From Candidatus Poribacteria bacterium (GTDB lineage: Bacteria > Poribacteria > WGA-4E > PCPOR2b), in NCBI GenBank assembly GCA_965215015.1, contig OZ244042.1, positions 4,480,001-4,544,000 on the forward strand: a DNA stretch of 64,000 nucleotides, written 5' to 3'. Below, in pieces: positions 54,004 to 60,580 of this stretch. How positions within the stretch are numbered: position 1 is the first letter of the stretch; the number at the start of each line of letters is the position of its first letter. The notes under the pieces were generated by a model. That model saw only the letters and a list, made by a program, of their open reading frames with translations, did not search any database and was not told the origin of the DNA. Position numbers and translations under genes: made by a program.

Positions 54004-54618
54004 TGTCAGCATCTGGATTTACCAGATTCTATGATTCTCAGCATTTTTAGATGCTGCCGTTTCTATCCTGTTTATCCTTCCATCTTGGAAACCCTGATTC
54101 AGCACACCGATTCACATAGCCATCTGATTCAGACATCTCCCGCCACTGTCAGCATCTGGATTTACCAGATTCTATGATTCTCAGGAGTTTTAGATGCTGC
54201 CCTTTCTATCCTGTTTATCCTTCCATCTTGGAAACCCTGATTCAGCACACCGATTCACATAGCCATCTGATTCAGACATCTCCCGCCACTGTCAGCATCT
54301 GGATTCACCAGATTCTATGATTCTCAGGAGTTTTAGATGCTGTCGTTTCTATCCTGTTTATCCTTCCATCCTGAAAATCCTGATTCAGACATCTCCCGCC
54401 ACTGTCAGCATCTGGATTTACCAGATTCTATGATTCTCAGGAGTTTTAGATGCTGCCCTTTCTATCCTGTTTATCCTTCCATCCTGAAAATCCTGATTCA
54501 GACATCTCCCGCCACTGTCAGCATCTGGATTTACCAGATTCTATGATTCTCAGGAGTTTTAGATGCTGCCCTTTCTATCCTGTTTATCCTTCCATCCTGA
54601 AAATCCTGATTCAGACAT
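54004..54618. repeat. Tandem array of five palindromic units (143, 143, 113, 113, ~103 bp)
   Basis: Units start tgtcagcatctggatt at 54004, 54147, 54290, 54403, 54516 and end gattcagacat; near-identical, no unique spacers. Confidence 0.92.
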
Positions 54619-54655: not shown

Positions 54656-55993
54656 TTAGCTGGACCCCGTCTTTCCCAAATCGCGGCGGAGCTCATCTGC
54701 TGAGGCAAGGCCCGCAACTGTGCCCGGGGGATGTTTATACCACCCCGGATCATCATAGCTGGCAAGATGCTCTCGAACTTTTAGGAGGGTAAACATACCG
54801 CCCATTGTGATGTAATCGAAGGGGCCCCGTGCACCGACCATAGGGATGCTGTTTTTTGGCACCCCCATGTGGCCCGCTTCGACATGAACCCCGTGTTCCC
54901 CCATGCCGTGTTCTCCCATTGTCATATACCCAGGCAGCAGATGGCGAATTTTTTGGTCAAGTCCGTTTTTCTGAATACCCACAATATTCGGGAAATTGTG
55001 CCCCATCTGATTCATGACATGGTGGGTCATATGGCAGTGCACCGCCCAATCCCCCGGCTCACTGGCGACAAACTCGATATCCTGCGTGTCACCGACTGGA
55101 ACAAAGAGAGTGCTGCCGGGCAGCTGCCCTGAAATCGGGATGCGACCCCCATTCGTTGCAGTAACCTTGAAGTAGTGACCGTGGAGGTGAATTGAATGAT
55201 GGTCCATTGCCGAGAGGTTGCCGAAACGGATCCGCACCCGATCGCCCATTTTGACGACTAACGGCTCGGTTCCAGGATAACACTTTGCATTCATCGTCAG
55301 GACGTTGAAGTCGGTCATCTCGTTAGGATTGGGCGTGGTCGTCCCCGGATCAATTCGCCACTCACTTAACATAATCGCAAAGTCTCGATCTACCCTGTAA
55401 TCGGGCGAGGCTTTTCTGGGATGGAAAATGAGCATTCCCATCATACCCATCGCCATCTGAGTCATCTCGTCATGGTGGGAATGGTACATGTAAGTCCCCG
55501 ATTGGCGCACCGTCCACTCGTATTTGAAGGTCTCACCCGGTTGGATGGCGCGCTGGGTTAGCCCGCCGACGCCGTCCATCCCGTTCGGGAGAAAGACGCC
55601 ATGCCAGTGGACGGATGTAGGGGCTTTAAGTTTGTTGGTGAGGTAGATGCGGATATGGTCGCCCTCCACCGCCTCAATAGTCGGACCATGGACTTGTCTA
55701 TTGTAACCCCAACACTTCGCTTTCAAACCGGGGGCGAAGTTGTGCCATACCTCCTCAGCAATCAAGTGAAAGACTTTAACGCCGTCAACAATCTTCCACG
55801 GTAGAGCGGAATTGTTGGGCGTGATAATCGGCGTATAGTCCTTATCGGGCAACCCCGGCTCCAACGCTGGCTGTTGCGCGACACCTGCGTAAGATTTTTC
55901 CCATTGGGACTCGGTTGAGTTTGATTGAGCCGGCCCCAGCGCAACGGCACCGCCAACCAGTGCCCCTGTTTTCAGCATATCCCTTCGATTCAT
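54656..55993 (-). CDS. Tat-exported multicopper oxidase
   Basis: MNRRDMLK Tat signal; HWHG, MYHSH, HSIHLHGH, HCHMTHH copper ligands. Confidence 0.92.
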   Translation of the reverse strand: MNRRDMLKTGALVGGAVALGPAQSNSTESQWEKSYAGVAQQPALEPGLPDKDYTPIITPNNSALPWKIVDGVKVFHLIAEEVWHNFAPGLKAKCWGYNRQVHGPTIEAVEGDHIRIYLTNKLKAPTSVHWHGVFLPNGMDGVGGLTQRAIQPGETFKYEWTVRQSGTYMYHSHHDEMTQMAMGMMGMLIFHPRKASPDYRVDRDFAIMLSEWRIDPGTTTPNPNEMTDFNVLTMNAKCYPGTEPLVVKMGDRVRIRFGNLSAMDHHSIHLHGHYFKVTATNGGRIPISGQLPGSTLFVPVGDTQDIEFVASEPGDWAVHCHMTHHVMNQMGHNFPNIVGIQKNGLDQKIRHLLPGYMTMGEHGMGEHGVHVEAGHMGVPKNSIPMVGARGPFDYITMGGMFTLLKVREHLASYDDPGWYKHPPGTVAGLASADELRRDLGKTGSS

Positions 55994-55994
55994 T

Positions 55995-57455
55995 TTAGTG
56001 TCCCCCTTCTGCAGCTGCGCTGTCAAAGTGTTTGACAGGGCCGTTCCTTTGCGATAGCGATGTATCTACCTGTGTATCCAGGACTAGCCTACCGTTGAGA
56101 ATCTGATCGAGTTTCGCTCGTGCGACATGATAGTTGTAGAGTATCTGGATGTAATCTCGACCGGCGTCAATCTGCTGTTGTTTCGCCAGCAATAATCGTG
56201 GGGTGCCTACCTGCATTGCATTGTACTGTAATTGAACCTGTTCGAGAATCTTCTCTTGGAGTGGCAGTATCTCGTTCTGATAAGACAGTGCACCCTGTCG
56301 AGCGGTCAGTAGACGGTGGCGTACGGCGCGGACTGCGGAACGAATCTCAACCGCTAGGGCGTGGTATTCACCCTGCCGTCGGCGTAATTCCGCTGCCGCC
56401 GCCGCGCGCTGCCCCCGTTTTTGATCAAAGAGTGGAATCTCAATCCCAAGCGCAGGGCCTGCTTTCCAGGCTCCATCTTCATACTCAAGTTCTCCTCCAA
56501 TCTCTAAGCGTGGTACAAGAGACATCGCTTTTGACACGCCGAGTTGCTTCCCGATAGATACGATGCGTTCCCGCGTGATGGCGAGATCTATGCTATTTTC
56601 GATTGCAATCTTCTCAACGTTCTCAAGTTTCATCAGTTCTGTTGGGATATTCGGTAGCCGAGCCTCAACCTTCCAAGCTGTTTCCTGACCCCACAGCCCC
56701 ATTAACCGATTGAGCCGTTCGCGGCTTTCGGCAAGGGCGACCTCCGCCGCGGTGAGCCCTAGCTTTGAACGCTCATAAAGCGCACGCTGAAGCAGCAGAT
56801 CCAGTGCCGGTATATTCCCCGCTTCGTGAAGTTGATGAGCAAATTCGTATCCCGCCTGAGTTGCTAGAACAACCTGACGCAACATCCCCAACATCTGCTT
56901 TTCAGCCTGAATGCGATAAAACGCCATGCGTGTCTGCCCTGCCAAATCCATCACAGCAGCTGTCACGCGAAGTTTTGCTGTCTCAAACTCCGATTTTGCA
57001 ATCGATCTTCGCATTGACCCATATAGAAACGAGAGGAAGTCCATCTCAATCGCGAAGGCGTAGGTGTCGTGAGCGGGGGGCGCCGTAGTTGTGTCCACGG
57101 GAAGACCAAATGTCGCGTTTCCATGAAAAGCAGGGTTCGAGAAGGAACCAGCCTCAACGACAGCGGCGTATGCGATACCGATCTCCTCATAGGTTGCCTG
57201 TAGGCGACGGTTATTCAGCAGCGCAATTTGAATGGCCGTATCGGTGACCAGCGGCTTATCTAGCAGCTCTTTAATTGTCTGCACTACTTCATCAGCCGGA
57301 TCCATGTTCGTATTCCAGTGAATAGGGAAGCCAATGCGTTCATCCACCTGCTGCTGGACTTCGTTGAAAGCTACTTTTTTCGATACACCAGCGCAGCCGA
57401 TTAGGAGGAATGACGCCGCGAAAAATAACGCGGCGTATCTCATTTTCTCGTTCAT
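55995..57455 (-). CDS. TolC family outer-membrane lipoprotein (copper-resistance associated)
   Basis: Lipobox LIGC; AIQIALLNNRRLQA; IPLFD; YNAMQ. Confidence 0.88.
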   Translation of the reverse strand: MNEKMRYAALFFAASFLLIGCAGVSKKVAFNEVQQQVDERIGFPIHWNTNMDPADEVVQTIKELLDKPLVTDTAIQIALLNNRRLQATYEEIGIAYAAVVEAGSFSNPAFHGNATFGLPVDTTTAPPAHDTYAFAIEMDFLSFLYGSMRRSIAKSEFETAKLRVTAAVMDLAGQTRMAFYRIQAEKQMLGMLRQVVLATQAGYEFAHQLHEAGNIPALDLLLQRALYERSKLGLTAAEVALAESRERLNRLMGLWGQETAWKVEARLPNIPTELMKLENVEKIAIENSIDLAITRERIVSIGKQLGVSKAMSLVPRLEIGGELEYEDGAWKAGPALGIEIPLFDQKRGQRAAAAAELRRRQGEYHALAVEIRSAVRAVRHRLLTARQGALSYQNEILPLQEKILEQVQLQYNAMQVGTPRLLLAKQQQIDAGRDYIQILYNYHVARAKLDQILNGRLVLDTQVDTSLSQRNGPVKHFDSAAAEGGH

Positions 57456-57476: not shown

Positions 57477-58205
57477 TTAATGGCTGTGTTTGTGAGACTT
57501 CACGGCTTCGGGATCAGACATATCGCTGCGTGAGACGGGCATTTGCGTTTTCTCACTGTGGCACGTGAGCATCGCCCTTCCGAAATATGGGTTGCGAACG
57601 GGCTCGCCCATTTGCAGCCAGATCCCCCCTTCAGGCACCTCATGTGCCATCCCGCACACGTAGCTATAGATTGGCTTCTCGTAAATTGCGGGTATGCCCA
57701 CAGCAGCAATAAAATGCTTGAAACTATCGCTCAGTGAGCCGTAGGCAATCCGAGCAGCTTTGATGTCCGAGGGGGTGCCAAGTTCATGTCCGGCGTCGTG
57801 GATGGCCTCGGTATGGGCTTCGTGAGCACTCCACAGCTCAGCAGGAGCTTCGCCTTCAAGGGTGTGGAAAGCTTCAAGCATTGTATGTGCCTTCATATTA
57901 ACCTCCTCCACCGTATCGGACGCGAGCTGCTGCCCGATACTGAGATAGGCATCAAACATTGACGCCAATGCTTGCGCCCCATTAGGTGAGAGCTCAGGGC
58001 TGCTATGACCTCCATTACCTTCGTGCTTCTCTGCTGCCGACATATTGTGGTAATCGACGGATGCTCCCTGTTCGGCATTGGGATTTGCAGGATGATCTTG
58101 TGAGGTGATAAGGTCAACGGTTTTGCTACTGCAACCGATGGCTAGGAGTAAAAACAGGGGAATAAGTAGGGATAAAATTTGTTGATTGAAAACTCTGGAT
58201 AACAT
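57477..58205 (-). CDS. DUF3347-like His-rich lipoprotein
   Basis: Lipobox AIGC; DHPANP; AYLSI, LASD; CGMA, WLQ, VRNPYFGRAMLTC. Confidence 0.75.
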   Translation of the reverse strand: MLSRVFNQQILSLLIPLFLLLAIGCSSKTVDLITSQDHPANPNAEQGASVDYHNMSAAEKHEGNGGHSSPELSPNGAQALASMFDAYLSIGQQLASDTVEEVNMKAHTMLEAFHTLEGEAPAELWSAHEAHTEAIHDAGHELGTPSDIKAARIAYGSLSDSFKHFIAAVGIPAIYEKPIYSYVCGMAHEVPEGGIWLQMGEPVRNPYFGRAMLTCHSEKTQMPVSRSDMSDPEAVKSHKHSH

Positions 58206-58212
58206 GAGAATA

Positions 58213-58335
58213 ACCTCCGTTTTGAGTGAGAAAAGATCAGAGAAAGACTAGCGGTGTTGTGGTATAGGTGCACAGAAATACCGACCGATCAATACATCTT
58301 AGAATTAGAAAAATTAGGCGAGAGAAAACGGAGGT
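58213..58335 (-). promoter_or_regulatory. SD/anti-SD pairing linking the RAPP codons to the downstream RBS
   Basis: acctccgtttt (58213-58223) and aaaacggaggt (58325-58335) form a perfect 11-bp inverted repeat. Confidence 0.7.
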
Positions 58336-58778
58336 GCCCGAGGGGAAAGCCGGGGGATGGGAGGAGTTGTGTAAGGGTTATAGGGAAGTTGCAGATGAGC
58401 GGCGAAAGAAACGGTGCCGGAAGAGATTTTAGGCGTTGTGGGTATTAGGAGGATAAATGAGAATGTCTTTTTTTGGATTTGTGAGACAAATTGGGGTTCG
58501 CTTGTTCCAAGCGATTCCCACCGGCTGAAGCAACAATGTCCTTCTTTATCCTCTTGGTGCTCATGGAAAGGGGTTGGTTGATTTTCAGGCTGACAACAAG
58601 TAGACTGGTTCGTTTCATCGGTGGTTTGTGAACCAACCAGACATTGCTGATGCCCCAGAAACTTATCGGCTGTGGTGTCTTCACCCGCTTCTCGGATTGC
58701 TGCACATTGTACCGGACAAATAAAGTAAACCGAGGCTATTGAAAGCAAGAAAAGCACGCCAAGGTTTTTGAATTTCAT
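58314..58778 (-). CDS. Cys/His-rich exported leader protein ending in a RAPP motif (CutF/CruR/DUF2946-like)
   Basis: N-terminal hydrophobic segment, CPVQC, TCC, HCC; C-terminus PPIPRLSPRAPPFSLA; first gene of the copper operon. Confidence 0.7.
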   Translation of the reverse strand: MKFKNLGVLFLLSIASVYFICPVQCAAIREAGEDTTADKFLGHQQCLVGSQTTDETNQSTCCQPENQPTPFHEHQEDKEGHCCFSRWESLGTSEPQFVSQIQKKTFSFILLIPTTPKISSGTVSFAAHLQLPYNPYTTPPIPRLSPRAPPFSLA

Positions 58779-58881
58779 TGGATGACCCTTTCCCATACAA
58801 TAATGTAGCTATGCGATCAGAACAGTTATTGTCTAATTACGCACTCCCCGAAGGTGCGTAATCTTCGGAAGGTTGAGACTA

Positions 58882-59870: not shown

Positions 59871-60580
59871 CATCGGTGCGAACCGTCCAAGATTTTATCC
59901 CATCTCTTTCCCCTGCGCTTGTGGGGCTGTTAGGTGGGTAGGAGTTCTTACCCCACTGTTTGTAGTAGCGCAATTTATTGCGCGTCTGCCGCAGGTTAGA
60001 AGGACGAACTGAGTCCCCCCAATCGGTGCGAACCGTCCAAGATTTTATCCCATCTCTTTCCCCTGCGCTTGCGGGGGGTTAGGGGTATAGGAGTTCTTAC
60101 CCCACTGTTTGTAGTAGCGCAATTTATTGCGCGTCTGTCACAGGTTAGAAGGACGAACTGAGTCCCCCCAATCGGTGCGAACCGTCCAAGATTTTATCCG
60201 ATTTCTTTCCCCTGTGCTTGCGGGGGGTTAGGTGGGTAGGAGTTCTTACCCCACTGTTTGTAGTAGCGCAATTTATTGCGCGTCTGCCGCAGGTTAGGTG
60301 TGTAGGAGTGCTTACTTCACCCCATACTGATTCCCCCCAATCGGGTCTAACCGTCCAAGATTTTATCCGATTTCTTTCCCCTGCGCTTGTGGGGGGTTAG
60401 GGGTATAGGAGTTCTTACCCCACTGTTTGTAGTAGCGCAATTTATTGCGCGTCTGCCGCAGGTTAGGTGTGTAGGAGTGCTTACTTCACCCCATACTGAT
60501 TCCCCCCAATCGGTGTGAACCGTCCAAGATTTTATCCGATTTCTTTCCCCCCGCTTGCGGGGGGTTAGGGGGGTATACTG
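59871..60580. repeat. Tandem array of composite REP units (150, 149, 169, 169 bp plus partial); related copy at ~59520-59625
   Basis: Unit start atcgg...aaccgtccaagattttatcc at ~59871, 60021, 60170, 60339, 60508; each full unit contains tgtagtagcgcaatttattgcgcg. Confidence 0.9.

Follow-up and report, generated by a model that had tools for sequence, protein, structure and literature searches.

What does the small, cysteine-rich gene do that stands first in a copper-homeostasis-type operon of Candidatus Poribacteria? The gene lies on the minus strand of a 64,000-nt stretch of DNA, the window analysed here (assembly GCA_965215015.1, contig OZ244042.1, positions 4,480,001 to 4,544,000), and genes for a lipoprotein-like protein, a TolC-like outer-membrane efflux protein (OEP) and a multicopper oxidase follow it. 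A sequence-only reading had proposed a ribosome-stalling copper switch in which the arrest codons of a leader pair with the next gene's Shine-Dalgarno (SD) sequence. As far as sequence analysis goes, this interpretation is supported. We consider it probable that an exported, Cys-rich nascent chain arrests the ribosome at an Arg-Ala-Pro-Pro (RAPP) motif, and that the arrested ribosome occludes an anti-SD sequence, which would open the ribosome-binding site (RBS) of a copper-detoxification operon. The 154-aa open reading frame (ORF) is best explained as a sensor leader that acts in cis and belongs to the functional class of CutF, CruR and SecM. Below, G000 is the genome analysed here, L-numbers are leader loci, g-numbers are genera, and L001 is the window locus.

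A helix between the putative arrest site and the next ribosome-binding site

The elements of the leader and of the predicted switch are the following.

ATG 58778 to TAA 58316-58314, minus strand: leader gene, 154 aa, C-terminus SPRAPPFSLA before the stop, from the sequence and the ORF list
58698..58778, minus strand: putative export signal or signal-anchor, about residues 1-27, read from MKFKNLGVLFLLSIASVYFICPVQCAA
58718-58704, minus strand: CPVQC (C21, C25) at the outer end of the putative export signal, both Cys invariant
58530..58598, minus strand: two invariant Cys-Cys pairs, C61C62 at 58598-58593 and C82C83 at 58535-58530
58329..58340, minus strand: RAPP, putative arrest motif, R147 A148 P149 P150, invariant in the alignment
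58325..58335, minus strand: anti-SD arm ACCUCCGUUUU, read as gcA CCU CCG UUU Ucu (A-P-P-F codons)
58213..58223, minus strand: SD arm AAAACGGAGGU of the next gene, GGAGG core at 58218-58214
58206..58313, minus strand: intergenic spacer of 108 nt, which forms the helix loop; U-rich, with more C than G

The leader mRNA ends with the codons CGG GCA CCU CCG UUU UCU CUC GCC UAA (R147-A-P-P-F-S-L-A-stop), and the GGAGG stands 8 nt before the ATG (58205-58203) of the lipoprotein-like gene. The claim that a leader ending in R-A-P-P-F-S holds a perfect 11-nt complement of the SD-bearing arm was confirmed by the sequence and by an inverted-repeat search, in which the arms at 58325-58335 and 58213-58223 are 11 nt long, 100% complementary and separated by 101 nt. 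Folding also favours the pairing. A 161-nt fold has the helix in its minimum free energy (MFE) structure as well as in its centroid. With 251 nt of context, the helix pairs have probabilities of 0.73-1.0, and the GGAGG is unpaired in the free mRNA with a probability of 0.00.

Across the 64-kb window there are 18 inverted pairs within 150 nt that have an exact 11-nt seed, so that the 11-mer alone is unremarkable and its position is what stands out; this pair is the only one of the 18 with arms more than 30 nt apart. A CCU-CC/GGAGG core comes free with any Pro-Pro coded CCU CCN. Among 609 crudely called G000 genes with GGAGG near the start, AAAAC is found just 5' of it in only 4 and AAAC in only 6. 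A run of 11 nt with the arrest site of the window was reached by 0.08% of 1291 SD-bearing upstream windows of G000.

A stalled ribosome was mimicked by masking positions -12..+14 around the Pro149 codon (P site), which removes the helix. The cost of opening the region -15..+3 falls from 12.1 kcal/mol in the free mRNA to 7.6 kcal/mol with the stall site masked. As background, 120 GGAGG genes drawn at random from G000 have a median cost of 6.9 and a 90th percentile of 9.6 kcal/mol; 1.7% of them cost at least 12.1 and 39% at least 7.6 kcal/mol. Masking thus shifts the RBS from the top 1.7% of GGAGG genes to the ordinary range. The change upon masking is positive in most orthologues and amounts to 10-12 kcal/mol in g11.

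Conservation of the helix and of its codons

A structure alignment of 30 loci (g1, g4, g11) began three codons ahead of the R codon and ended at the start codon of the next gene. The only consensus structure that RNAalifold returned is a 10-bp anti-SD/SD helix. In this alignment 88.3% of the cells pair; with the 3' partner shifted by 1-3 columns, 31.8-51.9% do so. In 29/32 orthologous loci (genera g1, g4, g7, g11), the contiguous Watson-Crick run is 9 bp or longer, which bears out the expectation that the pairing is conserved; the exceptions are L017 (5 bp), L023 (6 bp) and L024 (7 bp). In L032, 11 bp are retained across a 214-nt spacer. Twelve helix pairs were followed, of which 6 never vary and 2 show double changes. 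In L007, a change of UUU to CUU (F-to-L) accompanies a change of AAAAC to AAAGC, and CCG-CUU pairs AAAGCGG. In L013, UUUG pairs CAAAC (U to G with A to C).

One locus appears to be a natural knock-out. L017 (genome G006) is the sole g1 locus with a spacer insertion of about 115 nt and also the sole g1 locus in which Pro150 is coded CCA. Its SD flank is changed, the run is down to 5 bp and the extended anti-SD/SD complementarity is lost, as if both arms had been lost together. The inserted segment carries a strong hairpin, GACCGGGTTTTT...AAAAACCCGGTT.

Codon choice at the putative arrest site is nearly frozen. In 33 orthologues, which are kin so that the counts overstate independence, Pro149 is CCT in 32/33, Pro150 is CCG in 32/33 and the Phe is TTT in 31/31. 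The synonymous entropy in the helix codons is 0.87 bits for A, 0.20 for each P and 0.00 for F, and the conserved codons just upstream of the helix have 1.84 (S), 1.22 (P) and 2.04 bits (R). CCT is the rarest Pro codon of G000 (17.5%), and TTT makes up 56% of its Phe codons. A second RAPP-ending family in G000 uses CCG/CCA CCA, and the g14 relatives, which have no SD, use CCT or CCC. RAPP is thus coded otherwise elsewhere, and the motif itself does not need the helix codons. The pattern argues for nucleotide-level selection on the anti-SD codons, with a freeze that starts exactly at the helix border. Conservation is also seen past the helix, in 35 SD-proximal nt.

A cysteine-rich leader family with a fixed spacing to RAPP

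Relatives of the leader occur in 72/176 genomes of the phylum Candidatus Poribacteria, all of them in four families of one order. Full-length relatives (residues 1-154) are found in 19/19 genomes of the genus at 57-74% identity and in 10/10 genomes of g11, a genus of another family, at 32-39% identity. Among 5.8 billion proteins, 157 relatives were found at E<=1e-3; none has a Pfam domain, and one is named Candidatus Poribacteria. A search without a word index gave 24 representatives at 50% identity, the distant ones of which end in RGPP. The relatives are 143-155 aa long, and no Pfam or NCBIfam model matches the leader protein. A metagenome scan with A1, our leader alignment of 35 sequences, gave only 4 loci, one of which (L065) is without a complete ORF. 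Taken together, the relatives indicate that the leader ORF is a real, conserved gene family. DUF6769 (Bacteroidota), the nearest named cluster in the ESM Atlas (score 0.95), is no more than a lead, as no A1 member matches that Pfam family at E<=10.

Twelve residues are invariant in the 35-sequence alignment: M1, L11, C21, C25, C61, C62, C82, C83, R147, A148, P149 and P150. The Cys/His clusters that had been described are thus present. The listed ORF of 160 aa starts at an ATG at 58796, has six extra upstream residues, MGKGHP (one His), and contains 7 Cys and 6 His in total, with six of the Cys invariant. From the second Cys of the last CC pair it is 64 positions to the R of R[AG]PP in 50/57 loci, and a range of 63-65 takes in 56/57. 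This spacing persists though identity drops to about 28-30%; the distance from the N-terminal CPxxC to the R varies from 88 to 165. In most loci, 4 residues follow R[AG]PP. The N-terminus has two Lys, then a hydrophobic stretch and then CPVQC, an export signal as judged by eye. AlphaFold2 (AF2) with A1 as input gives a helix at residues 4-19 only and no fold, with a mean predicted local distance difference test (pLDDT) of 51.5 and a predicted template modelling score (pTM) of 0.16. In the model, this lack of a fold fits a leader, weakly, rather than a folded enzyme.

G000 ORFs of 200 aa or more contain a single RAPP and a single RGPP, and the control tetrapeptides AAPP, RAPA, KAPP, PPAR and PPGR occur 15, 16, 12, 14 and 18 times. 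This scarcity agrees with the published exclusion of the motifs from proteomes (PMC12992588).

Recurrence of the pairing in other branches

The genes downstream differ across the family and include those for a lipoprotein, a YtkA-like protein, an extracytoplasmic function (ECF) sigma factor and a candidate selenoprotein. Long complementarity recurs with other sequences. In L049 (g8, RGPP-Y, YtkA-like gene downstream), UCCUCCAUAUA pairs UAUAUGGAGGA over 11 bp, and 0/1291 background windows are as good. In L042, UCCUCCUCUUU pairs AAAGAGGAGGA over 11 bp (p 0.005); its downstream gene is ECF-sigma-like by eye from the N-terminus, Pfam having been run on the L056 counterpart only. In the paralogues L055 and L036, CAUUCACCUC pairs GAGGUGAAUG directly before the ATG over 10 and 9 bp (p 0.002 and 0.006); the arm consists of H-S-P codons two codons past RAPP, which a stalled ribosome should still reach. 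L037 pairs over 10 bp with one G.U, and L038 is degraded. The extended pairing is recurrent in the family, not universal.

Further observations concern these branches. In g14 (L043-L046, L052-L054, L058), where the leaders end in RGPP, a GC-rich hairpin and a U-run follow the leader, by eye; here the sensor may act in another form, by transcription attenuation. In L036 (3616-4662, plus strand), L055 (1693-2874, minus strand), L044 (3612-4658, plus strand), L052 (3598-4644, plus strand) and L033 (3196-4245, plus strand), the gene after a paralogous RAPP/RGPP leader encodes a signal peptide, then (E/D)SC-x-A and an in-frame TGA. With TGA read as U, a conserved ORF of 349-350 aa with one U is obtained in 4/5 loci, and L055 passes two further TGAs to reach 394 aa. 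The ORF (in L055, its homologous part) is outer-membrane-protein-like and ends in ...F or ...SF, in L033 in ...LL. The gene is a candidate CxxU selenoprotein gene. The leader search in G000 gave one match only, and no leader paralogue of these selenoprotein-type loci was found there; the search was aimed at the leader, not at the candidate selenoprotein gene itself. An element with ends GGACTTACGCA...TGCGTAAGTCC, like a miniature inverted-repeat transposable element (MITE), lies in the spacers of L051, L054, L057 and L058 and also downstream of L073-L075, three loci described below. Its copy in L057 interrupts the SD, with a GGAGG left on either side.

The operon and its surroundings

Three genes follow the leader.

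57477..58205, minus strand: 242-aa His-rich lipoprotein-like protein, DUF3347-like, with an LAIGC lipobox by eye
55995..57455, minus strand: TolC-like outer-membrane efflux protein, PF02321 E 1.3e-30, TIGR01844 below its cut-off
54656..56026, minus strand: multicopper oxidase with a twin-arginine translocation (TAT) signal, Cu-oxidase_3 E 1.6e-38, Cu-oxidase_2 E 3.7e-27, TAT_signal

The sequence-only reading had named a TolC and a multicopper oxidase, and the PF02321 and Cu-oxidase_3 matches establish both. The oxidase also matches copper_res_A with E 2.6e-48, below the cut-off; its listed ORF starts from a TTG at 56026, and the ATG of MNRRDMLK lies 4 nt past the stop of the OEP gene. The same-strand gaps from leader to lipoprotein-like gene, to OEP and to multicopper oxidase are 108, 21 and 4 nt, the last measured to the MNRRDMLK ATG.

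The first of the three had been called a DUF3347 gene, which stands in part. The DUF3347 model PF11827 matches the 242-aa protein with E 0.012 and 16.9 bits, and four orthologues with E 3.8e-5 to 0.0047 and 18.2-24.9 bits. All 5/5 proteins are below the gathering score of 25.5 bits, yet the matches cover profile positions 2 to 85-90 of 93, nearly the full profile. The protein is best described as DUF3347-like.

The spacer between the leader and this gene is 108-130 nt long in 30/32 loci, with a mean of 23% C and 16% G (32 loci). A scan found no terminator-like or promoter-like site in it on the operon strand. Upstream of the leader, a 9-bp hairpin (ATTACGCAC/GTGCGTAAT, 58836-58862, minus strand) follows the preceding gene for a 195-aa acidic protein; it recurs at the equivalent place in orthologous loci and is succeeded by a semi-conserved, leader-proximal region of about 60 nt. 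The upstream alignment gave no assignable promoter or operator. Tandem arrays at 54004-54618 and 59872-60572 flank the block of copper operon and acidic-protein gene, with periods of 143/113 and 149/169 nt, 2.5-3.1 copies and 93-98% matches.

Comparison with known arrest leaders

The comparison with CutF and CruR that had been drawn proves apt (PMC9973294, PMC9426467, PMC12992588). In CutF of Rhodobacter capsulatus (cutFOG), a stem-loop shields the SD, and the protein has a CxxxC and a Pro-rich C-terminus (PMC9973294; bioRxiv 10.1101/2025.02.05.636593). Like the leader described here, CutF is the first gene of its operon, shares that operon with a TAT multicopper oxidase and has a CxxxC; it is an exported small protein with a C-terminal Pro stall site, as our leader is predicted to be. 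In CutF, an mRNA structure shields the next SD and is opened in cis by the stalled ribosome; for our leader the shielding is computed and the opening predicted. CutF differs in that it belongs to DUF2946, stalls at an EF-P-sensitive PPP (EF-P, elongation factor P), has 118 aa and uses a spacer stem-loop that is melted by the helicase of the ribosome. The Poribacteria leader, in contrast, has no DUF2946 match, and has RAPP, six Cys (CxxxC and two CC) and 154 aa; its anti-SD consists of the putative arrest-site codons, the pairing spans 101 nt, and the predicted targets are a DUF3347-like lipoprotein and then a TolC-like protein. By the rules for CutF-like proteins (PMC9973294), it exceeds the filter of <150 aa by 4; it has the PP and the downstream gene that these rules call for, and a putative signal peptide, judged by eye and by the AF2 helix.

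CruR (Bp2923) of Bordetella pertussis has a CXXC 45 residues before RAPP, and RAPP three residues from its end; copper relieves the arrest, and Rho terminates transcription (PMC9426467). Toeprinting showed its arrest, in which the P site and the A site are occupied by the two Pro codons (PMC12992588). CruR and our leader share RAPP 3-4 residues from the end, a Cys motif at a fixed distance, the first place in a copper operon and a long spacer. CruR differs in that it is a DUF2946 protein, serves to repress an importer when copper relieves its arrest, acts through Rho-dependent termination and is independent of a signal peptide, whereas the leader here has a distance of 64 from a CC pair, a predicted unmasking of the SD and a detoxification operon as its target.

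The leader resembles DUF2946 proteins in a C-terminal RAPP near the stop and in the first place in a copper operon, but profile searches do not place it in that family. PF11162 (DUF2946) matches 0/35 leader family members, even at E<=10, and a scan of G000 with it gave nothing above the cut-off and nothing at the leader locus. The leader has no CXXC; its Cys are C21xxxC25, C61C62 and C82C83, and its spacing is 64, against a ruler of about 45 (+/-2) in DUF2946. With these tests failed, the leader would work like CutF, CruR and SecM but stands outside their family. Poribacteria do have a separate family with a CxxC 45 residues before RAPP, which gives marginal PF11162 matches. An hhalign comparison of it with the leader family aligned 11 C-terminal columns only, the RAPP tail, at a probability of 3%.

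G000 has three copies of this CxxC-45-RAPP family outside the window, all below the PF11162 threshold: L073 (204-497, plus strand), L074 (205-504, plus strand) and L075 (471-770, minus strand). Each has a transmembrane segment, a HEHEHDH run, CSAC 45 residues before RAPP and the terminus SRAPPV(S/F)SV, and a His-rich lipoprotein-like gene lies 230-340 nt downstream. We also considered whether the gap between 64 and 45 reflects the translocon path, that is, periplasmic versus cytoplasmic sensing. The idea was rejected, since CutF senses periplasmic copper with a spacing of about 41-45, by our own arithmetic from C41xxxC45 of the 90-aa mature part and PPP at 114-116 of 118.

In SecM, the stalled ribosome prevents a helix that would sequester the downstream SD (PMC7897499). 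SecM-secA, MifM-yidC2 and VemP-secDF2 resemble the mechanism proposed here in that an exported nascent chain stalls near its C-terminus and a downstream SD is freed. These leaders monitor Sec or YidC and regulate translocon components, whereas copper genes follow here and the chain carries putative metal-binding Cys. The downstream genes are copper-related and include no Sec/YidC component, which sets the leader apart from Sec/YidC monitoring substrates. RAPP/RGPP small proteins are found upstream of metal-homeostasis genes across phyla, and RAPP is depleted in proteomes (PMC12992588). ApdA, ApdP and other RAPP/RGPP arrest peptides share with our leader the C-terminal core, an N-terminal localisation signal and the depletion (PMC7897499, PMC10951233, PMC12992588). 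For ApcA, ApdA and ApdP, no SD-sequestering hairpin was predicted (PMC7897499), and in the leader here the predicted hairpin is explicit and conserved. A literature search that did not extend to subscription journals or to the supplements on CutF and CruR gave nothing on a Poribacteria example, on this leader family or on arrest-site codons that serve as anti-SD.

Proposed mechanism

In the mechanism that we propose, the leader would be translated and exported co-translationally. The ribosome would arrest at R147-A-P-P, with the codon of Pro149 in the P site and that of Pro150 in the A site, as expected from the CruR toeprint (PMC12992588). In the free mRNA, A-CCU-CCG-UUU-U would be the anti-SD of a single long-range helix that buries the GGAGG of the next gene. 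A ribosome parked at RAPP would hold this anti-SD inside its mRNA channel, which would allow translation of the lipoprotein-like gene, and the tightly packed TolC-like and multicopper-oxidase genes follow. The six invariant Cys of the nascent chain, the last CC pair of which is fixed 64 positions before the R, may determine from outside the cytoplasm how long the arrest lasts. By analogy with CutF, copper binding probably prolongs the arrest and would thereby induce the operon. The arrest at RAPP, the export, the role of copper as ligand and this direction of control are our inferences.

Evidence against the switch and alternative explanations

Several observations weigh against this mechanism. 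Covariation is weak within the orthologues, where 35/500 shuffles reach the observed score, because most helix pairs never vary. Support for SD/anti-SD covariation comes from the compensatory changes in L007 and L013 and from the other paired sequences elsewhere in the family, and not from the statistic. Each arm is also under another constraint (R-A-P-P-F on one side, the SD on the other). Some breaks are uncompensated: in L024 CCA leaves the SD core with an A.A mismatch, in L023 the sequence is AACCGG, and the metagenomic L062 has UCU for UUU with 10/11 pairs kept. No pairing was found in the metagenomic loci L063 and L064. Outside the orthologues, seven other g8/g18 loci pair over 5-6 bp only (L057 over 8 bp at a repeat-made SD copy), and g10 loci over 4-6 bp, with 7 in L056 and 5 in L060; the p values of the short g8/g10 pairings are 0.14-1.0. 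In g14, the GGAGG SD is missing, and 7/8 loci show no SD-like site.

The energetics have their own weak points. The 161-nt stretch folds no more stably than shuffles (z -0.12). At equilibrium, masking of L001 raises the probability that the GGAGG is unpaired only from 0.00 to 0.05, because the freed GGAGG pairs other C/U-rich tracts such as CUCCU at 58364-58360. This probability is dominated by weak alternative pairings, and the opening energy with its genome background was therefore taken as the measure of the switch. The CUCCU tract (58360-58364, minus strand) belongs to T-P-P codons about 30 nt upstream of RAPP and is the partner on which the SD is predicted to fall back; a second ribosome waiting in a queue would cover it. 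Copper is named as the ligand because of the operon and the cysteines only.

The alternative that survives best, though we regard it as unlikely, is plain translational coupling. Any ribosome that finishes the leader would open the SD, with no arrest or metal sensing, and the leader would be a working copper-binding protein of the periplasm or membrane. The last 8 leader codons and the helix overlap, so that every passing or terminating ribosome unmasks the SD, and a terminating-ribosome state removes all helix pairs in the model. At 154 aa, the protein is also long for a leader (the CutF-type filter is <150 aa; PMC9973294), and with its conserved internal motifs it could also act as a protein, which is a further point against the proposed switch. 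Coupling leaves several features without a reason, however. RAPP is invariant yet nearly absent from the remaining proteome, and a fixed spacing of 64 to the CC pair among members that are about 30% identical is hard to explain without a ruler anchored in the ribosome. AF2 finds no fold for the supposed protein, and the family precedes unrelated downstream genes.

Control of transcription in the manner of CruR is quite unlikely. Here, what the stalled ribosome governs would be termination by Rho, or polarity, within the 108-nt spacer, with a secondary role for the SD pairing. CruR, also with RAPP and copper, does so across a spacer of 162 nt (PMC9426467); the spacer length is conserved in our loci, the spacer is U-rich with C over G, and the g14 relatives have, by eye, their GC hairpin and U-run in place of the SD helix. 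The C/G bias is modest, however, the spacer has no terminator-like site, and the frozen synonymous codons at the arrest site and the repeated re-complementarity to the SD would be left unexplained. A downstream gene left untranslated would by itself be prone to Rho polarity, so that both layers may act together.

That the pairing is a by-product, in which CCN CCN complements GGAGG by default and the extra 5-6 bp are due to chance, kept by ancestry and by a separate constraint on each arm, is very unlikely and was already disfavoured: the core is free and most g8/g10 members show it only, covariation among the orthologues falls short of significance and the SD-proximal 35 nt are conserved past the helix, but AAAC 5' of the SD is rare (6/609 GGAGG genes), four sequence-distinct cases of 9-11 bp occur in separate branches, the synonymous freeze begins at the helix border, L017 lost both arms together, and the pairing in L007 cost an F-to-L change.

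Significance

A stalled ribosome that frees a sequestered SD is the classical logic of SecM and CutF and no new principle. Copper-sensing arrest leaders are a recent finding, with CutF and CruR coming from two proteobacteria and one Pfam family, and the same logic would operate here in a family of unrelated sequence, from a phylum that is uncultivated and sponge-associated. The switch would consist of one helix whose 5' arm is the arrest site, so that synonymous and compensatory mutations can separate the effect of the peptide from that of the RNA. The Cys-to-RAPP spacing of 64, compared with 45 in DUF2946, would be a second, independent ruler for the point along the tunnel-translocon path at which metal is sensed. 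The family also suggests that Pfam-based surveys undercount such leaders, and a search for R[AG]PP near a stop with complementarity to the next SD could find more.

For the family as a whole, we offer a wider reading as a tentative one. The six-Cys RAPP/RGPP leaders may be a convergent, Poribacteria-specific invention with a one-helix switch, in which the codons of the P and A sites are themselves the anti-SD. The leaders may have been rewired repeatedly to new outputs, namely the copper efflux/oxidase operon, YtkA-like proteins, an ECF sigma factor and the candidate CxxU selenoprotein, with the complementarity evolving afresh. The 64-position ruler would then place the last CC pair at a defined point of the ribosome-translocon assembly when the ribosome stalls.

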